A stretch of DNA of 46,311 bases from positions 1 to 46,311 of the forward strand of contig CAXNJO010000018.1 in NCBI GenBank assembly GCA_964202905.1. The letters are read 5' to 3'. Of this stretch, positions 10,382 to 19,023 are shown one piece after another; the first letter of the stretch is position 1, and every line of letters begins with the position of its first letter. Below the pieces are notes generated by a model that was not told the DNA's origin, searched no databases, and saw nothing but the letters and a program-made list of their open reading frames with translations. The DNA comes from Polyangiales bacterium. Lineage in GTDB: Bacteria > Myxococcota_A > Polyangia > Polyangiales > JADJQN01. The position numbers and the translations under genes are program-made.

Positions 10382-11911
10382 TCAACTGGGGGCGGGCTGC
10401 CGCGTGGCGCTCGCGCGGACGGCCGCGAGCAGCGCGTCGAGATCCGCCTCGCGCGTGTGGGGGCTCATCAGCGTGACGCGGAGCCAGGTGCGGCCGCGCA
10501 GTCGCGTGCGCACGAGATAGAAGTCACCATCGCGAACGAGGGTGTCGCGCACGGCGTCCTGCAGCGCGTCGAGTGCGTCGGCGTCGCCCGCGAGGTGCGT
10601 GGGCTCGACGCGGAAGCAGACGATGTTCGTCGCGGGGCGCACGGCGAGGCGGAGGTCGGGCGCGGCCTCGACGCGATCGGCGAGCGCGGCCGCGAGGGCC
10701 GTGGCGCGGTCGACGTGCGCGGCCAGCAGTCCGGGGCCGTGCACGGCGAGGATCGCGTAGAGGTCGAGGGCGAGGTTCGGTTTGGTGCACTCGAGGGTGC
10801 GCGTGCCGAGGTCGTACCAGCGCTCGCGCGGGTCGCTGCCGCCGAACAGGTACGTGGCCTCCTGCGCGAAGGCCTCCCACGCGCGGCGCCCGTCGCGGTA
10901 GAGAACGGCCGTCGCGAGCGAGGGCACGAGCAGGAGTTTGTGCGCGTCCCACACGAGGCTGTCCGCGCGCGCGACGCCCGCGAGCAGCCCGCGGTGCCGG
11001 GCGGAGAAGAGCGCGCTCGCCCCGTGCGCGCCGTCGACGTGCAGCCAGACGCCGCGCGGCGCGCACACGTCCGCGAGCTCGTCGAGCGGATCGAACGCGC
11101 CCGTCGCCGTCGAGCCCGCGCTCGCGACGACCGCGAACACACGCACGCCGCGGGCGGCTGCGTCGTCGAGCGCCGCGGCGAGCGCGGGGCCGCGCAGCCG
11201 CAGCGTGTCGTCGGTGGGCACGACGACCATGCCGTCGTCGCCGAGCCCCATCACCCGCGCGGCGCGGTCGACGCAGTAGTGCGTCTGGTCGCTGCACACG
11301 AGCGCGAGCGGCGCGTCCCCGCCGCGCAGCCCTCGACGCCACACGTCGTAGCCCGCGCGCGCCTGCCGCGCCGCGAGGAGCGCGGTGAGGTTCCCGACGG
11401 ATCCGCCGGATACGAAGACGCCCTCCGCCGCCGCGCCGAAGCCCGCGCGGCGTGCGAGCGCGTCGAGCACCGCGCGCTCCATGCCGAGGCCCGGCGGGCC
11501 CATCTCGAAGACGGCGAGCCCGTTGTTGAGCAGCCCGCGCGCGAGGTGCGTGATCGCGGTCTGCGGCAGCGGCGCCGCCACCTGGTGCCCGACGTAGCGC
11601 GGGTGGTGCAGGCGCTGCGAGTCCGCGAGCAGCCGCGCGAGCACGGCGTCGAGCGTCGGGCGCGCGTCGGCCGGCGCGTCGTCGGGCGGCAGCGCGAAGG
11701 CCGCGACGGCGTCCTCGGGCGTCTGCCGAGGCAGCACCGGGAGGCCCGGCTCGCCGGTGATGCGTGCGAGGTGATCCGCGAGTCGATCGACCGCCGCGTG
11801 CGCCTCGCGCCGGAAGCGCTCGGGGTCGAGCGCGCGCCGCAGCACGTCCGGGGCGGCGTCGTCCGGCGGCGCGGTGCGCGGCGTGTCGGGCGGGAGGCGC
11901 GGGTCGGTCAC
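10382..11911 (-). CDS. Group II PLP-dependent amino-acid decarboxylase
   Basis: HHPRYVGHQ, SGGSVGNL, AGSTATGAFD, WLHVDGAHG and PLP lysine in DAHK. Confidence 0.92.
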   Translation of the reverse strand: MTDPRLPPDTPRTAPPDDAAPDVLRRALDPERFRREAHAAVDRLADHLARITGEPGLPVLPRQTPEDAVAAFALPPDDAPADARPTLDAVLARLLADSQRLHHPRYVGHQVAAPLPQTAITHLARGLLNNGLAVFEMGPPGLGMERAVLDALARRAGFGAAAEGVFVSGGSVGNLTALLAARQARAGYDVWRRGLRGGDAPLALVCSDQTHYCVDRAARVMGLGDDGMVVVPTDDTLRLRGPALAAALDDAAARGVRVFAVVASAGSTATGAFDPLDELADVCAPRGVWLHVDGAHGASALFSARHRGLLAGVARADSLVWDAHKLLLVPSLATAVLYRDGRRAWEAFAQEATYLFGGSDPRERWYDLGTRTLECTKPNLALDLYAILAVHGPGLLAAHVDRATALAAALADRVEAAPDLRLAVRPATNIVCFRVEPTHLAGDADALDALQDAVRDTLVRDGDFYLVRTRLRGRTWLRVTLMSPHTREADLDALLAAVRASATRQPAPS

Positions 11912-12181: not shown

Positions 12182-12583
12182 TCAGCCCGGCGTGTTGCGG
12201 AGGAAGTCGGCCACCTCCGCGAAGCGCACGTCGAGGAAGGCGCGCACCTCGCCATCGACGCCGCGCGCGTCGAGCGCGCGGGTCATCGCGCGCAGCCAGG
12301 CGTCGCGCATCGCGAGATCGACCGCGACGTGCGCGTGCCGCATCCGCAGCCGCGGGTGGCCGTGCGCGGCCGAATAGTCCGAGGGGCCGCCGAGCCACTG
12401 CACGAGGAAGAGCGCGAAGCGGTCGCGCGTCGTGCGGCTCACGCGGCCCGCGTCGTCGAGCGCGTGCAGCCGCGCGAGCGCGGGCTCGTGCGCGTCCATC
12501 GCGGCGTAGAAGGCCTCGGCGAGGGCGTGCACGGCGCCGGCGCCGCCGAGCAGCTCGAAGGGGGTCGCGGCGGGCGCGTTCAC
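12182..12583 (-). CDS. Group II truncated hemoglobin (trHbO-like)
   Basis: PFELLGG...AFYAAM...FLVQWLGGPSDYSAAHGHPRLRMRH...RDAWLRAM. GTG start at 12583. Confidence 0.9.
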   Translation of the reverse strand: MNAPAATPFELLGGAGAVHALAEAFYAAMDAHEPALARLHALDDAGRVSRTTRDRFALFLVQWLGGPSDYSAAHGHPRLRMRHAHVAVDLAMRDAWLRAMTRALDARGVDGEVRAFLDVRFAEVADFLRNTPG

Positions 12584-12647: not shown

Positions 12648-12653
12648 TATAAT
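12648..12653 (+). promoter_or_regulatory. Consensus -10 box (TATAAT) upstream of the MNIO locus
   Basis: Perfect TATAAT in very GC-rich DNA about 60 nt before RBS GAGGAGG (12703-12709) and ATG 12716. No clear -35. Confidence 0.5.
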
Positions 12654-12715
12654 GACCGACACCGCGCGGCACCACGAAGAACGTGGGCCAGGGCGGCGGT
12701 CCGAGGAGGCGTGCG

Positions 12716-13141
12716 ATGCGTCTGAAGGCAGCGGTGCTCGAGGTGGTGCGTGGGGCGGCAGGGGCGACGTTGCTCGTCGCGGTCGGTTGTTCGGGGAGCG
12801 AGTCGATCGCGCGGGAGCTGGCCCCGCCCGTCGCGCCTGCGCCGCTCTTCGTCGCGAGCCCGCCGTCGGTGGACCCGGCTCCGGGCACCCTGCCTGCGGG
12901 CAAGCCCGCGGTCACGCCGTCCGTCGTGATCGCGCCTGTCGCGCCGCCGGCCATGCCGCCGACGAACGTCGACGATGTCCTCGCACACGCGGACCCCGAT
13001 CCGACGGCTGCGCCGGTGGGCGATGCGCGCCCGCCGCGTGCGCGTCCCGGTCGAGGCCGCCCTCGCCCCCGGGAGGTCGAGCCCCTCGCGCGACCCATCG
13101 GGCTTCCGCCCAACATCGCCGCCGCGTGCGGGCGCGGCTGA
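12716..13141 (+). CDS. Putative chryseobasin-like RiPP precursor (lipoprotein, C-terminal AAACGRG)
   Basis: Strong RBS, signal with lipobox-like LVAVGC, Pro/Ala-rich linker, and terminal ACGRG* resembling the ChrA CPACGMG tail. Lies directly upstream of the MNIO. Confidence 0.75.
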   Translation: MRLKAAVLEVVRGAAGATLLVAVGCSGSESIARELAPPVAPAPLFVASPPSVDPAPGTLPAGKPAVTPSVVIAPVAPPAMPPTNVDDVLAHADPDPTAAPVGDARPPRARPGRGRPRPREVEPLARPIGLPPNIAAACGRG

Positions 13142-13160
13142 GCGGGGACGGTCGCGGCGC

Positions 13161-14075
13161 GTGACGGCCACGAGCGTGCACGTCGGGCTCTCGCTCTCGC
13201 CGGGCGAAGACTTTCGCCTCGCGACGCTGGCCCTCTTCGAGCGTGGGATCGTCGACGCCGTCGAGTGGAACGTCGACATGGGCTGGTCGTCCGTGGGCGT
13301 GCCCGCCTGGGTGCGCGCGCTCTGCGACGCGTACGGCGAGGCGGGGCGGCTCTCCGGGCACGGCGTCGAGTTCTCGGTGCTGAGCGCGACACTCGATGGG
13401 CGGCAGCAGGCGTGGCTCGCGCGGCTGCGCGAGGAGGTGCGCGCGCGCCGCTACGCGCGGTTGTCCGAGCACTTCGGCTTTCTCACGGCGGGCGCCTTCG
13501 TGAACAACACGGTCATGCCGCAGCCGCGCAGCGAGGCGGCGCTGCGCGTCGGGCGCGACCGGCTCGCGCGGCTCTCGGATGCGGCGGGGATGGCCTTTGG
13601 CCTCGAGAATCTCGCGCTCGCGTTCGGGCCGCGTGACGTCGCGGAACAGCCGGATTTTCTCGAGGATCTGCTCGCGCCGGGCGGCGGCTTCCTGCTGCTC
13701 GATCTGCACAACCTCTACTGCCAGGCCGTGAACTTCGACGTCGCGCCCGAGGCGCTGCTCGCGCGGTATCCGCTCGCGCGCGTCCACGAGCTCCACGTCG
13801 CGGGCGGCGAGCTCGATCATCCGCGCAGCGATCCGCGCGGGCGTCCCTTCCGCCGCGACAGCCACGTCGGGGACGTACCCGACGCGGTGCACGCGCTGCT
13901 GCGTGAGGCGCTGCGGGCCTGCCCGAACCTCGCGACCGTGATCGTCGAGCGCAGCGACCACACCCTGCACGGCGACGCCGAGGTCGCGCGCTTCGTCGCC
14001 GATTTCGAACGCATCCGCGCGATCGTGGGCGAAGAGCGCGGGAACACGCCGCTCGACGACGGGGGGGCCGCATGA
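13161..14075 (+). CDS. Multinuclear non-heme iron oxidase (MNIO, DUF692), ChrH-like
   Basis: Metal-ligand motifs GHGV, LSEHFGF, GLENLA, LLDLHNLYCQ, ELHVAGG, RRDSH and VIVER. GTG start at 13161. Confidence 0.9.
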   Translation: MTATSVHVGLSLSPGEDFRLATLALFERGIVDAVEWNVDMGWSSVGVPAWVRALCDAYGEAGRLSGHGVEFSVLSATLDGRQQAWLARLREEVRARRYARLSEHFGFLTAGAFVNNTVMPQPRSEAALRVGRDRLARLSDAAGMAFGLENLALAFGPRDVAEQPDFLEDLLAPGGGFLLLDLHNLYCQAVNFDVAPEALLARYPLARVHELHVAGGELDHPRSDPRGRPFRRDSHVGDVPDAVHALLREALRACPNLATVIVERSDHTLHGDAEVARFVADFERIRAIVGEERGNTPLDDGGAA

Positions 14076-15436
14076 GCGGCCGGACGCATGCACCCGACGC
14101 TTCGGGGGCGGTGTCGCGCGGCGCGATCGCACAGGACGTCGCGTCGCCGGTCGAGGTCATCACTGAAGACGGTGTCCTTGCGCGTGACGCATCCGCGGAC
14201 GCAGCGACGGCTGACACGCTCGCGCGCTATCAGGCCGGAGTGCTCGACGCGCTCGCAGACGCGCGGCAGCCCGAGGAGGTCGTCCCGAGGCTCCTCGCGG
14301 ATGCATCCCTCGCGGCCTACCACGAGGCGGTGCGCGGCTTCGAGGCGCGCGCGCTCGAGGTGGGCATGGGCCTCGTGCACCGCTGGGGCGAGCGGGAAAT
14401 TCTCCTGAAAAACGGGGAGATGCGTGTCGCCGAGCTCGTCACCGCCGGCGCGCCCTTCGTGCATCGTGCGGCGCCGCTCCCCGTGCCGGGGCCGGGTGAG
14501 GTGCGGCTGCGCGTCGAGGCGAGCGGGCTTTGCGGCACCGACGTGCACCTCTGGCGCGGGGAGTTCACGGCCGCGCTTCCCGTGGTGCCGGGGCACGAGC
14601 CTGTCGGCGTGATCGATGCGATCGGGGCCGGTGTGACGGGCTTCGCGCCGGGCGAGCGCGTGGGCGTGTCGTGGGTGCAGGCGGGCTGCGATCGCTGCGA
14701 CGCCTGTGCGCGCGCACGGCCGAAGTACTGCGTCGCGCCGCGCACCTGGGCGCGCAGCGGCGGCGGACACGCGCAGTGGATGGTGGCCGACGCGCGTGGC
14801 TGCACGCGCGTTCCCGCCGCGCTCTCGGCCGCGGACGCGGCGCCACTCTTCTGTGCCGGGTTCACGGCGATGAGCGGTTATCGACGCGCACGGCCGCGGC
14901 CGGGCGAGGTGATCGGCGTGCTCGGGCTCGGTGGGCTCGGGCACCTCGCCGTGCAGATCGCGCGGGCGCACGGGCACGAGGTCGTCGCGATCACGTCGAG
15001 CGCGAGCAAGCGTGCCGACGCGCTCGCCCTCGGTGCCGACGAGGTGCTCGCCGTGCGCGCCCACGCCGGACACGAGCTCGCGGCGCTCGGCGGGGTGGAC
15101 GTGCTCCTCGGTACGTCGAGCAATCTCGCGCAGACGAGCGAGGCGCTCTTCGGATTGCGGCCCGGCGGGCGGCTCGTCGCGCTCTCCCTGCCCGCGGGCG
15201 CGGGCGCGCGGGCCCTCGCGCTCGATCCGCGCTGCCTCCTCGAGCGGCAGCTCTCCGTGGTCGGCGCGATGCAGGACGAGCGCGCGGATCTCGTCGACGT
15301 CCTCGAACTCGCCGCGAATGGCGCGGTGGTGCCGTGGCTCGAGCGCTATCCGTTTGCGCAACTCGGCCGCGCGATGGCGCGCCTCGCGGAGCGACGCGTG
15401 CGCTATCGCGCGGTGCTCGAACACGTGGCGGGGTGA
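14072..15436 (+). CDS. Zn-dependent medium-chain alcohol dehydrogenase with an extra 116-aa N-terminal domain
   Basis: GLCGTD, GHE, CxxCxxC...C structural Zn site and GLGGLG. The ADH domain starts at Met 14420. ATGA overlap with the MNIO stop. Confidence 0.88.
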   Translation: MSGRTHAPDASGAVSRGAIAQDVASPVEVITEDGVLARDASADAATADTLARYQAGVLDALADARQPEEVVPRLLADASLAAYHEAVRGFEARALEVGMGLVHRWGEREILLKNGEMRVAELVTAGAPFVHRAAPLPVPGPGEVRLRVEASGLCGTDVHLWRGEFTAALPVVPGHEPVGVIDAIGAGVTGFAPGERVGVSWVQAGCDRCDACARARPKYCVAPRTWARSGGGHAQWMVADARGCTRVPAALSAADAAPLFCAGFTAMSGYRRARPRPGEVIGVLGLGGLGHLAVQIARAHGHEVVAITSSASKRADALALGADEVLAVRAHAGHELAALGGVDVLLGTSSNLAQTSEALFGLRPGGRLVALSLPAGAGARALALDPRCLLERQLSVVGAMQDERADLVDVLELAANGAVVPWLERYPFAQLGRAMARLAERRVRYRAVLEHVAG

Positions 15437-15455: not shown

Positions 15456-16511
15456 TCAGGTCGCAGCGGCGAGCGCGGGCGCGCGGGCGGCGAGGGCGCG
15501 ACGTCCCGGGCGTGCCGCGTCGTCGGCGTCGGCCGCGTAGAACTGCCTCGCCCAGCGGCGGTAGCGCCCGATGGGGCCGTCGCCGTCCGCGAGCGCCGGC
15601 CGCGGCTCGTAGCGCTTGTTCTTCCAGTAGATGAAGTCCTGCTCGACGTCGTGGGCGTAGAGCGCGAGCGCGCCCGGCGCGACGAGATGCTCGAGCACCC
15701 AGCGCGGCAGCAGCGCGAAGGGCCGCCGCGAGCCGTCGCCGCCGAGGCTGATGGCCGCGCAGAGCTCGATCTCGCCGCTCGCCGTCGGCGTCACGGCGAC
15801 GAGGTTGCGCGCGCGGAAACCGAGGCTCGCGATGTGCACGTCGACGAGCGTGCAGCCGAGGCCCCAGACCTCGCCGGCGATCGCGATCGTCAGGCGCGGA
15901 CCCCTGCGGCCGGCGATACCGGGGAGCGGGCGCTGGAAGTCGTACCAGACCTTGAGGCACGGCCCGACCGCCTCGGGCTCGCGCAGCTCGCGCACCGCGT
16001 GGTAGCCGTGCACCCAGGCGAAGTGCCCGAGATCGACGGAATTCTCGGCGATGTCCTGCGGGTGCGTCGGGAGCCGCCACGTGGTCGAGCGCCAGGACGT
16101 CCAGCCCGCTTCGTCGAGCGTCGGGAGCTCCCAGTCGGCCTTGGTGCCCGCGGGGTCGTACCACGCGAAGATCTGCCCGTAGGCCTCGCGCGTCGCCCAC
16201 GGGGAGAGGCGCGCGGTCGGCGGGGGCTTCGTGCCGTAGCCCGTCTCGACGCACTGCCCGCTCGCGTCGAAGCGCATGCCGTGGAAGCCGCAGCGCAGCC
16301 GCTCGCCCTCGACCTTGCCGCAGTGTCCGAGGTGCGCGCCGAGGTGCGGGCACCAGGCACCCGCGACGCGCGGCTCCCCCGCCGCCGTGCGGAACACGAC
16401 CAACTCCTGCCCGTCGATCCGCGCGGGCCGCACGTCTCCGACGCGCAGCGACCCCGCATCCGCGACCCTGTGCCAGCCCTTCGGGACCGGCAGCGTCCAC
16501 TCGCCACTCAT
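15456..16511 (-). CDS. Rieske [2Fe-2S] oxygenase, KshA/sterol-desaturase-like
   Basis: CPHLG...CGFHG Rieske motif, ENSVDLGHFAWVH mononuclear iron motif and QDFIYWKNK. Confidence 0.88.
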   Translation of the reverse strand: MSGEWTLPVPKGWHRVADAGSLRVGDVRPARIDGQELVVFRTAAGEPRVAGAWCPHLGAHLGHCGKVEGERLRCGFHGMRFDASGQCVETGYGTKPPPTARLSPWATREAYGQIFAWYDPAGTKADWELPTLDEAGWTSWRSTTWRLPTHPQDIAENSVDLGHFAWVHGYHAVRELREPEAVGPCLKVWYDFQRPLPGIAGRRGPRLTIAIAGEVWGLGCTLVDVHIASLGFRARNLVAVTPTASGEIELCAAISLGGDGSRRPFALLPRWVLEHLVAPGALALYAHDVEQDFIYWKNKRYEPRPALADGDGPIGRYRRWARQFYAADADDAARPGRRALAARAPALAAAT

Positions 16512-16570
16512 CGGCCCACGATAGACGAAGCGCGTCGCGCCGCGCAACGGTGCTCGACGCCCGGGAGGCG

Positions 16571-17290
16571 CTACTCCGCGGCCTCGGCCTCGAGCGCCTC
16601 CGGAACCGGCCCCGCCACCACCGCCGCCGGGACCGTGCCGACGGCCCGCTGCAGGTGGTGGATGGCTCGCTTCTGGAGTTGGCAGACGCGGGACTCGCTG
16701 ATGCCCATGCGGTCGCCGATCTCGCGGAGCGCGAGGCCCTCGAAGAGCGCCAGCTCGACCGCCGCGCGCTGCCGCGGGGGCAGCTGCGCGACCGCGGCGA
16801 GCAAGCCGTCGCGCCGCGCGTTGGCGAAGAGCGTCTCTTCGGCGGTCGGCGAGCGGGTGTCCTCGAGACGCAGGCCGAGGGGCTCCCCATCGGGGGGGGC
16901 CGAGTCGAACGAGATGAGCCGCCGCGCGGCGATGACGCGCCCGCGCTCGGCGAGCTCACCCTCCGGCAGCTCGCCCGCCGCGTGCCGCACGGCGACACGC
17001 GTCTCGTCGCGCGAGCGCAGGTCGAGGCGGCGCACGGCGTCGATCATGCGCTGACGGATCCGCGTGCGGACCCAGGTGCGCTCCTCGATGCCGAAGCCCT
17101 CGTACGTGGAGAGCGCCTCGAGCACGGCGACGCGCCCCTCGGCGCAGAGGTCGTCCTCGTCGAGGGCCTGGCCGAGCGCGGCGAGCGGGCGCAGGCGCCG
17201 CGCGAGCATGCGGACCATCGGCTCGTAGCGCGTGAGCGCCTCGCGGGCTGCCGCGTTGGTCCAAGTCATCCGTGCCGTCCGCTTCTCCAT
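16571..17290 (-). CDS. FliA/WhiG-like (sigma-28 group) RNA polymerase sigma factor
   Basis: Region 2 DEDDLCAEGRVAVLEA...RIRQRMIDAVRRLD and region 4 LREIGDRMGISESRVCQL. Confidence 0.88.
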   Translation of the reverse strand: MEKRTARMTWTNAAAREALTRYEPMVRMLARRLRPLAALGQALDEDDLCAEGRVAVLEALSTYEGFGIEERTWVRTRIRQRMIDAVRRLDLRSRDETRVAVRHAAGELPEGELAERGRVIAARRLISFDSAPPDGEPLGLRLEDTRSPTAEETLFANARRDGLLAAVAQLPPRQRAAVELALFEGLALREIGDRMGISESRVCQLQKRAIHHLQRAVGTVPAAVVAGPVPEALEAEAAE

Positions 17291-17340
17291 GGAACTCCCC
17301 CGTGCTTGGTCCCGACCGCTCGTCGTGCCCGGCGCGGCTA

Positions 17341-17356
17341 TGCGACGACCGTGCCA
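17341..17356 (-). promoter_or_regulatory. Sigma54 (-24/-12) promoter for the FliA-like sigma gene
   Basis: Minus strand TGGCACGGTCGTCGCA has exact GG-N10-GC spacing, 50 nt upstream of ATG 17290. Confidence 0.75.
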
Positions 17357-17440
17357 GCGGACGGTCGGCCACGCATCCGAAAAATGAAGGAGAAAAGCCG
17401 CGGATTTCGGGGAGCGTTGGACGGGGCGCGGATCGGGTTC

Positions 17441-17506
17441 GTGCGAAAGTGTTCGATGTTGTGCGATTTCGAGGGAGAATCCGATCGGATTCGCACGCAT
17501 CCGCAC
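17441..17506. promoter_or_regulatory. Candidate enhancer (UAS) region
   Basis: GTGCGA at 17441 and 17461, inverted TCGCAC at 17491, and perfect palindrome GAATCCGATCGGATTC at 17477-17492, about 85-150 bp upstream of the sigma54 promoter. Confidence 0.45.
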
Positions 17507-17538
17507 ACTTCGGATCGCCGGGAGGCGCACGAGCGCCG

Positions 17539-19023
<1,485 letters not shown>

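Follow-up and report, generated by a model that had tools for sequence, protein, structure and literature searches.

The 46,311-nucleotide stretch analysed here (the window) comprises positions 1 to 46,311 of contig CAXNJO010000018.1 from a Polyangiales bacterium (assembly GCA_964202905.1), whose genome is 5.68 Mb in size and 94.5% complete. It contains a cassette of three genes on the same (+) strand, which encode a 141-aa open reading frame (ORF), a 304-aa enzyme of the MNIO family and a 454-aa ORF (gene 3), and which resemble a system for a peptide synthesised ribosomally and modified post-translationally (RiPP). An earlier note, made from the sequence alone, had described three tightly linked genes, a strong ribosome-binding site and an ATGA overlap between the second and third genes (14072-14075), all of which are borne out. 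The elements of the cassette are as follows.

12648..12653 (+): TATAAT, candidate -10 element
12703..12709 (+): ribosome-binding site GAGGAGG, 6 nt 5' of the precursor ATG
12716..13141 (+): precursor gene, 141 aa, with lipoprotein-type signal, Pro/Ala-rich tether and one-cysteine tail
12716..12790 (+): signal peptide with lipobox AVG-C25, C25 being the predicted diacylglyceryl site (by pattern only)
13127..13138 (+): C-terminal CGRG core with C138, predicted modification site
13161..14075 (+): MNIO barrel of the ChrH/DybH subfamily, 304 aa, without the C-terminal bundle
14072..15436 (+): gene 3, 454 aa
14204..14401 (+): Hc domain, gene 3 residues ~45-110, four-helix bundle homologous to MelHc and the ChrH C-terminal domain
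14420..15436 (+): Zn-dependent medium-chain dehydrogenase/reductase (MDR) domain, gene 3 residues 117-454

The putative precursor has a basic start, a hydrophobic stretch, AVG-C25 and then the tether, and ends in AAACGRG; its mature part is 24% proline. This is the Pro-rich protein with a lipobox-like signal and an ACGRG end noted before. C25 and C138 are its only cysteines, with no second cysteine between them, and an alanine occupies the position of the first tail cysteine of ChrA and DybA. No family in Pfam or NCBIfam matched it. The CGRG tail is not a chance occurrence: 40 of the 109,804 stop-terminated frames in the genome end in CGxG, and among these the precursor alone looks like a real protein, as judged by eye. 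A hidden two-cysteine precursor, or an additional one, was likewise not found among the 40 frames of this 94.5% complete genome. With regard to the anchor, the genome encodes the Lgt and LspA families. In related precursors from loci where an alcohol dehydrogenase (ADH) is linked to the MNIO (the ADH clade, below), G or A precedes the first cysteine at position 21-27 in 28 of 29 with a found start, and the remaining one has AAC a few residues further on. By pattern, a signal peptidase II signal with a lipobox cysteine is thus present in the window and kept in the 29 clade precursors. Such precursors, for instance DybA, are lipidated and have been named DAG-RiPPs (DybA, NedA; PMC13056109), so that the lipoprotein-anchored tail, earlier taken for an unusual RiPP type, is one already described. 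The glycine after the cysteine and the terminal glycine are invariant in clade tails, which is the register used for hydantoin formation.

The MNIO matches PF05114 with 109.6 bits (cut-off 25, E 2e-31). Its best NCBIfam model is MNIO_ChrH (NF050165) with 251 bits, matched over positions 3-285 of 363; the equivalog cut-off of 600 bits is not reached, and the last ~80 model positions correspond to gene 3. The next model scores 94 bits, and both BufB (94 bits) and HvfB (71 bits) lie far under their cut-offs, which places the enzyme outside the bufferin/oxazolin MNIOs. Its iron ligands are H67, H104, E149, D181, N184, H212, D233, H235 and E263, nine positions that all 26 clade MNIOs and 144-145 of 145 homologues keep unchanged. 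By motif spacing rather than alignment, H67, H104, D181, H212, D233 and H235 are comparable to H65, H102, D179, H210, D228 and H230 of DybH; D233 and H235 correspond in this way to the DybH Fe3 pair, which is required to pass beyond the thioaldehyde. The enzyme is 40-44% identical to those of Chryseobacterium, Hymenobacter and SJ512 loci. The model comparison and the tree support the ChrH-type assignment made earlier.

Gene 3 had been read as a plain Zn-dependent ADH and the locus as devoid of a ChrI-like partner, and both statements have to be revised. The ADH Pfam domains begin at residue 140 and are preceded by the Hc region. Residues ~45-110 match the ORF that follows the MNIO in the SJ512 mel locus (BLASTP, 24% over 59 aa, E 2e-7), and hhalign with a profile built from six MelHc/ChrH-tail sequences assigns the same region a probability of 96.3% (E 1.5e-9); Pfam gave no DUF2063 match on gene 3. 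In the AlphaFold2 model of the Hc-ADH protein (predicted template modelling score, pTM, 0.85), Hc consists of four helices with predicted local distance difference scores of 94-97 over residues 51-100, and residues 1-41 are predicted to be disordered. By homology, residues ~45-110 are thus the ChrH C-terminal/MelHc bundle, so the MNIO partner subunit is present, and the two matches led to rejection of the view that the partner is missing. An Hc-type bundle, fused or separate, is part of all ChrH-family enzymes; separate MelHc binds the barrel and is needed for activity, and ChrI was found to be dispensable (PMC13056109). A model of a 741-aa MNIO-Hc-ADH fusion (pTM 0.84, MNIO-Hc linker disordered) suggests that the three domains may adopt a fixed arrangement.

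As judged from its sequence, the system belongs to the ChrH enzyme subfamily and has the pattern of a DAG-RiPP, and it is not a chryseobasin system. It shares with DybA/DybH of Dyadobacter crusticola the MNIO subfamily, a lipobox cysteine together with a C-terminal CGxG, and a minimal cluster without ChrI; however, the CPACGMG tail of DybA forms a macrocycle, DybH carries a fused Hc and no reductase, and the window precursor is longer, Pro-rich and has a single tail cysteine (PMC13056109). In MelA1/MelH/MelHc of Candidatus Melainabacteria SJ512 (L076), barrel and Hc are also encoded by separate overlapping genes and Hc is needed, but MelHc is a free protein of ~68 aa, whereas the window Hc is fused to a Zn-ADH, and MelA1 is a 34-kDa secreted two-cysteine protein unlike the window precursor (PMC13056109). 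ChrA/ChrH(I) has the enzyme subfamily and the CGxG register in common with the window, while two cysteines, a macrocycle, S-methylation, signal peptidase I export and a ChrI neighbour belong to chryseobasin and are not seen here (PMC10214503). The CPxCGxG motif has been called conserved across the entire subfamily (PNAS text, PMC13056109); the window tail, AAACGRG, departs from this two-cysteine substrate motif of ChrH, DybH and MelH.

The distribution of the cassette was surveyed in 201 loci, gathered with collection scans of the best 80 of 361 and the best 80 of 241 matches, so that the sample leans to close relatives. Four loci from the window's own genome and six under 150 bits were dropped, which left 191 loci, or 154 at 95% identity. 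An ADH lies at most 900 nt downstream in 26 of these 154 non-redundant ChrH-subfamily loci; 113 have none, although 84 of these show 3 kb or more of downstream sequence, and the remaining 15 are truncated. Twenty-one of the 26 are MNIO-Hc-ADH triple fusions and five are split as in the window, with the ADH staying with Hc in the split loci. All 25 long MNIO homologues (533-2000 aa) combine PF05114 with ADH domains. Within Myxococcota the cassette recurs, and the closest named relatives of the locus, among the matches listed, are Sandaracinaceae and Polyangiaceae. Within 301 genomes of the order, an MNIO was found in 24 and a close ADH in 16, of which 14 lie at the MNIO locus (one across a contig break) and two stand alone. 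None of the three genomes from the window's own family (80-94% complete) showed the cassette, and the named records include no cultured organism of the ADH clade. The enzyme can be preceded by as many as four tandem precursors.

Within this sample, the number of tail cysteines goes with the reductase. When a second cysteine was first defined as CxxC or CxxxC before the tail, the ADH loci were one-cysteine in 20/20 cases with a visible precursor. Under a revised rule, set post hoc, that counts any cysteine in the 40 residues before the tail, 32/32 ADH-linked tails lack a second cysteine and all are CGRG (xxxCGRG), whereas a second cysteine occurs in 140 of 141 ADH-free tails (92 as CxxC and 48 at other spacings, probably including a few shadow frames). 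Counted by locus, 20/20 ADH-linked loci are one-cysteine and 95/96 ADH-free loci have a second cysteine. The tail arginine is invariant in the clade, and two-cysteine tails vary at this position. Six ADH loci have no adjacent precursor, and a pattern search of four ADH genomes of this kind gave a CGRG precursor with a lipobox in every one; in three of them it lies off-locus. The one-cysteine CGMG tails of Melainabacteria, which make up most of the apparent exceptions, were considered as a counter-example and largely withdrawn, as a conserved cysteine lies 15-18 residues upstream, which is also a post-hoc reading. The one-cysteine tail and the ADH are thus co-conserved, in agreement with the earlier note.

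What a one-cysteine tail becomes in the hands of a ChrH-type enzyme is indicated by published mutants. DybH first oxidises the second cysteine to a thioaldehyde, and Fe3-site mutants of DybH and ChrH stall at formylglycine (-18 Da); DybA C44A forms no macrocycle but an unstable -4 Da hydantoin electrophile, for which an episulfide structure is proposed and which glutathione traps (+303 Da) (bioRxiv 10.64898/2026.10.27.762324). ChrA C63S gives a -36 Da product (PMC10214503). These one-cysteine xxxCGxG substrates are laboratory mimics of the window tail, with the difference that they end in the unstable -4 Da species, the glutathione adduct or the -36 Da product, while the window has a reductase genetically fused (10.64898/2026.10.27.762324; PMC10214503). 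Because the C44A electrophile is trapped by glutathione and the genome encodes a glutathione synthetase domain, a one-cysteine tail would need a dedicated quencher. A macrocycle of the known kind is excluded here, since the first cysteine is missing and C44A gives none, and the product must differ from chryseobasin, as had been anticipated.

The ADH probably reduces the product that the MNIO forms on the tail. For the cassette as a whole we tentatively favour a branch of the ChrH/DybH DAG-RiPP family with one cysteine and a finishing reductase, a possible but by no means secure scheme that includes a -2 Da product. The NAD(P)H-dependent ADH step suggested earlier stands as the best reading of the fusion and of the tail pattern, while for the chemistry itself we infer the following steps. 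The barrel would need the Hc bundle, by homology, and Hc is fused to the Zn-ADH; therefore, the enzyme assembly would tether the reductase to the MNIO. As with DybH, the cytoplasmic MNIO would oxidise C138 by four electrons via thioaldehyde, beta-lactam and rearrangement to a Gly-Arg hydantoin and a sulfur electrophile (the proposed episulfide or an isomer), at -4 Da. The next step would be new: with no first cysteine for a macrocycle, the catalytic Zn of the ADH would bind the sulfur and NADPH would give a hydride, which would replace the missing thiol nucleophile and whose delivery would outcompete glutathione and decay. The product, at a net -2 Da, would be a ring-free hydantoin that carries a free thioaminal thiol and keeps the thiol-hydantoin unit of the DybA product. 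Finally, as for DybA, Sec export and Lgt/LspA lipidation at C25 would lead to display of the tail on a tether of ~110 residues. A membrane-anchored thiol/hydantoin ligand like the DybA product would be the most economical guess for its role.

The active site of the ADH bears on several alternatives to this scheme. It has the ligands of both Zn sites (C154/H175/C261 catalytic; C206/C209/C212/C220 structural), the T156/H159 relay, a Rossmann GxGxxG and T308/K313, and is thus a canonical Zn-MDR alcohol dehydrogenase; in fused copies T156 is kept in 51/51, H159 in 50/51 and the Zn ligands in 51/51. The altered Zn ligands or lost Ser/Thr-His relay of THAS- or DPAS-like iminium-reducing MDRs are not seen. 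Fused copies have Thr/Ser at 308 and Lys/Arg at 313, where aligned NAD enzymes have Asp, and these residues we take to reflect NADP preference. Among NCBIfam models, that of the aldehyde reductase Ahr scores best (203 bits; class III model, 58 bits; both below cut-off), and the fold matches FurX and AdhP-type ADHs (template modelling score 0.9 by target length), with plant iminium reductases also among the matches. If the ADH were instead oxidising, it could turn a thiohemiaminal or the glutathione adduct into a thioamide or thioester, a methanobactin-like metal ligand. Class III ADHs do oxidise hemithioacetals, a glutathione adduct does form on one-cysteine DybA, and the genome has the glutathione synthetase domain; however, the coenzyme site looks NADP-type, NADP-type coenzyme use in cells favours reduction, and the Ahr model scores well above class III. 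This alternative is therefore regarded as improbable.

A desulfurising route is unlikely to apply. In it, the -4 Da species would lose sulfur to give a -36 Da ene-diamide, which the ADH would reduce to an ethylenediamine-hydantoin link (-34 Da); the same estimate covers a variant in which the intermediate hydrolyses and the ADH reduces an aldehyde on the protein or on a released fragment. The -36 Da product of ChrA C63S (PMC10214503) fits such a route, as does the ability of MDRs to reduce iminium and conjugated C=C groups (PMC12224309), plant iminium reductases being among the fold matches. Against this, non-canonical MDRs of this type have in most cases given up the Zn ligands or the Ser/Thr-His relay (PMC12224309), both of which are intact here. 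The canonical active site argues against reduction of a free iminium or alkene and suits an aldehyde; therefore, the main rival to the reduction of a sulfur electrophile is a two-electron route via formylglycine or thioaldehyde, which is nevertheless considered unlikely. Here the retuned MNIO would stop at the thioaldehyde, and the ADH would either reduce the formylglycine formed by its hydrolysis to Ser (-16 Da) or return the thioaldehyde to Cys (0 Da), with inversion to a D-residue as the aim, in the manner of LanJ-type peptide reductases. The DybH and ChrH Fe3-site mutants make exactly such an aldehyde (bioRxiv 10.64898/2026.10.27.762324), and the clade has lost both the otherwise invariant Thr between the Fe3 ligands and Trp218, the latter present in 60/72 two-cysteine enzymes and 4/26 clade members. 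The ADH architecture is the canonical aldehyde-reducing one (PMC12224309), and NpnJA, an NADPH-dependent dehydrogenase of the LanJA type that finishes a RiPP modification, installs D-Ala in peptides, although its substrate is dehydroalanine in lanthipeptides and it is not fused to an MNIO subunit (PMC12328550). Yet both Fe3 ligands are invariant and the CGxG register is fully kept, and an L-Ser product would be pointless, so that an epimerisation would be required which no evidence supports.

It is also conceivable, if improbable, that the ADH does not touch the peptide and is a passenger or clean-up enzyme fixed by one old fusion, with the electrophile closed by the invariant Arg side chain, water, glutathione or a partner-protein thiol. 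On the trees, a single branch separates the ADH-linked MNIOs from the others (FastTree 100; IQ-TREE 79/94, not starred, on 54 rows), which indicates one origin. The 51 fused ADH copies separate from 83 stand-alone relatives on a tree (support 58), with the same active site in both; W201, Q203, W226, T308 and K313 are common to the 83 stand-alone relatives, and no clade-specific active-site residue was found. The ADH was therefore recruited from a widespread unnamed subfamily. The tail arginine pattern and the absence of a linked ADH at L201 would also fit a passenger. On the other side, the ADH is intact in 26/26 clade loci with enough sequence, although their MNIOs are only ~45-60% identical to that of the window, and it stays with Hc where the fusion is split. 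Moreover, E70, T117 and D266 are present in 26/26 ADH-clade MNIOs, and this signature occurs in 24/25 triple fusions, in 30/100 barrel-only proteins and in 0/20 MNIO-Hc proteins without ADH. From the barrel topology, the three residues would sit on loops after ligand-bearing strands, and E70 and D266 may bind the invariant tail Arg. The stand-alone Zn-ADH subfamily itself (P0154-P0257, 83 proteins of ~333 aa; L226, L228) is 50-58% identical to the fused ADH and has an invariant W-x-Q and, following the structural Zn loop, a Trp. Of five Melainabacteria genomes, three encode a stand-alone relative with 44% identity that does not lie at the MNIO.

Several observations weigh against a natural one-cysteine tail finished by reduction of its sulfur electrophile. 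Under the first rule, the ADH-free loci comprised 72 two-cysteine, 17 one-cysteine and 5 mixed cases, and the revised rule was framed with the exceptions already in view. A true exception is G142, where one of two precursors upstream of an ADH-fused MNIO ends in CLACGRG; a CAC tail in L115 also departs from the pattern, one two-cysteine exception is off-locus, and L201 has a one-cysteine tail with no ADH-like ORF seen in 14 kb. The ADH clade has one origin, so the correlation between tail and ADH has no independent replicates, and a quick tree search split the clade (support 0). Thr234, between the two Fe3 ligands, is present in 72/72 two-cysteine enzymes and in 4/26 clade members, and with its loss the MNIO reaction itself may have changed. 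Nothing in the ADH active site marks peptide specificity, its key residues being as in the stand-alone relatives, and we know of no precedent for an ADH reducing an episulfide. Additionally, a canonical Zn/relay architecture accompanies aldehyde chemistry (PMC12224309).

The structure of gene 3 might have been an assembly artefact, with a stop lost between Hc and ADH or a false stop after the MNIO. This was rejected because the same split recurs in L009/L032, L110, L112 and L118, because 24 proteins of 395-454 aa, that of the window included, show the Hc-ADH form, and because contigs of other runs have no indel at the junctions they cover. Contigs from X1, X4 and X6, runs under three study codes, span the ATGA junction gap-free, X1 being possibly the source sample. 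A 269-nt contig of metatranscriptome X12 equals 13144-13412 without differences, a match that is not proof of expression. As for control elements, the TATAAT box proposed earlier is present and rare, with four copies in the 5.68-Mb genome and one in the window (expected count 0.07; at least one reached in 7/100 shuffles). However, no matching -35 was recognisable for TATAAT at 12648, so that no full sigma-70 promoter pair was found at the locus, and the position reads TAGAAT in two near-identical loci, L110 and L111, which have GGGGAGG at the position of the ribosome-binding site. A function of TATAAT as the -10 of the cassette is plausible but unproven from these sequences. A search for a terminator at the locus found none.

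The window neighbours are a truncated globin divergent from the cassette, a KshA-like Rieske oxygenase that converges on the cassette, a sigma-70 factor together with a sigma-54 response regulator, and a PLP (pyridoxal phosphate)-dependent decarboxylase (12182-12583, 15456-16547, 16571-19023 and 10382-11911, all on the - strand; Pfam). The globin and the Rieske oxygenase were considered as parts of the system and rejected, as they were seen only in L110/L111 among 20 loci mapped. Flanking genes vary, and 12 flanking proteins of related loci belong to unrelated families or to none; the suggested role in metal or redox stress is thus without support.

Several other arrangements were observed in the survey. 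In Melainabacteria-type loci (L067, L081, L085, L089, L090, L093, L096, L101, L176 and L178), tandem secreted proteins of ~340 aa end in C-x16-CGMG, have a conserved upstream GCGHxxWW-like motif and stand among CPxCGxG paralogues ahead of a MelH-type enzyme; their macrocycles may be much larger. L192 (G529) has two acidic precursors of 200-280 aa ending in C-x7/8-CGGG beside a ChrH-type MNIO, with no ADH in the 1.5 kb seen, and L201 (L234:5895-7321, G452) has a divergent MNIO-Hc and a membrane-anchored one-cysteine CGMG precursor, with no linked ADH in 14 kb. In a sub-branch of the ADH clade (L098:3184-5001, L106, L164:953-2725, L012, L018), a repeat lipoprotein of ~590 aa with an N-terminal C-x5-C and no Pfam match directly precedes the triple fusion, and CGRG precursors lie further upstream or elsewhere. 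In L049, L068, L075 and L084 (two Polyangium), upstream ORFs end in CxxCG[LR][VL] plus a short extension rather than CGxG-stop. A second MNIO of the window's genome (G000:C3:110125-110908; L001, L003) consists of two overlapping frames, reflecting a frameshift or an assembly error, and is followed by an ORF that resembles a DUF2063-type partner, as judged by eye.

Neither an MNIO-ADH fusion nor an ADH-fused one-cysteine clade was found in the literature searched, outside which lay supplements and most subscription journals that may list such proteins. The words 'dehydrogenase' and 'CGRG' are absent from the main text of the preprint of the PNAS paper, and the accessible part of PMC12452194 contains none of 'dehydrogenase', 'ADH', 'alcohol' or 'oxidoreductase'. 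The ADH-fused one-cysteine clade thus appears to be new, while the lipid anchor and the split subunit were already known. It could be, and we put this forward tentatively, a natural MNIO-reductase assembly line, on a single polypeptide or as a tethered pair, in which a reactive hydantoin-episulfide known until now only as a laboratory shunt is quenched by a canonical Zn-ADH, with NADPH replacing the missing cysteine. A one-cysteine C-terminal tag with a single-chain modifying enzyme would then be a compact protein-labelling tool. On its way, the ChrH/DybH rearrangement forms a -4 Da species whose instability has prevented characterisation, and no function has been assigned to DAG-RiPP products. 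A clade without the ring-closing cysteine and with a fused reductase would be a natural trap for that species, and it could tell whether the cell needs the macrocycle or the thiol-hydantoin unit. If the scheme is true, surface lipoproteins would carry a backbone modification that is new, and an ADH would act on a sulfur electrophile within a protein tail.

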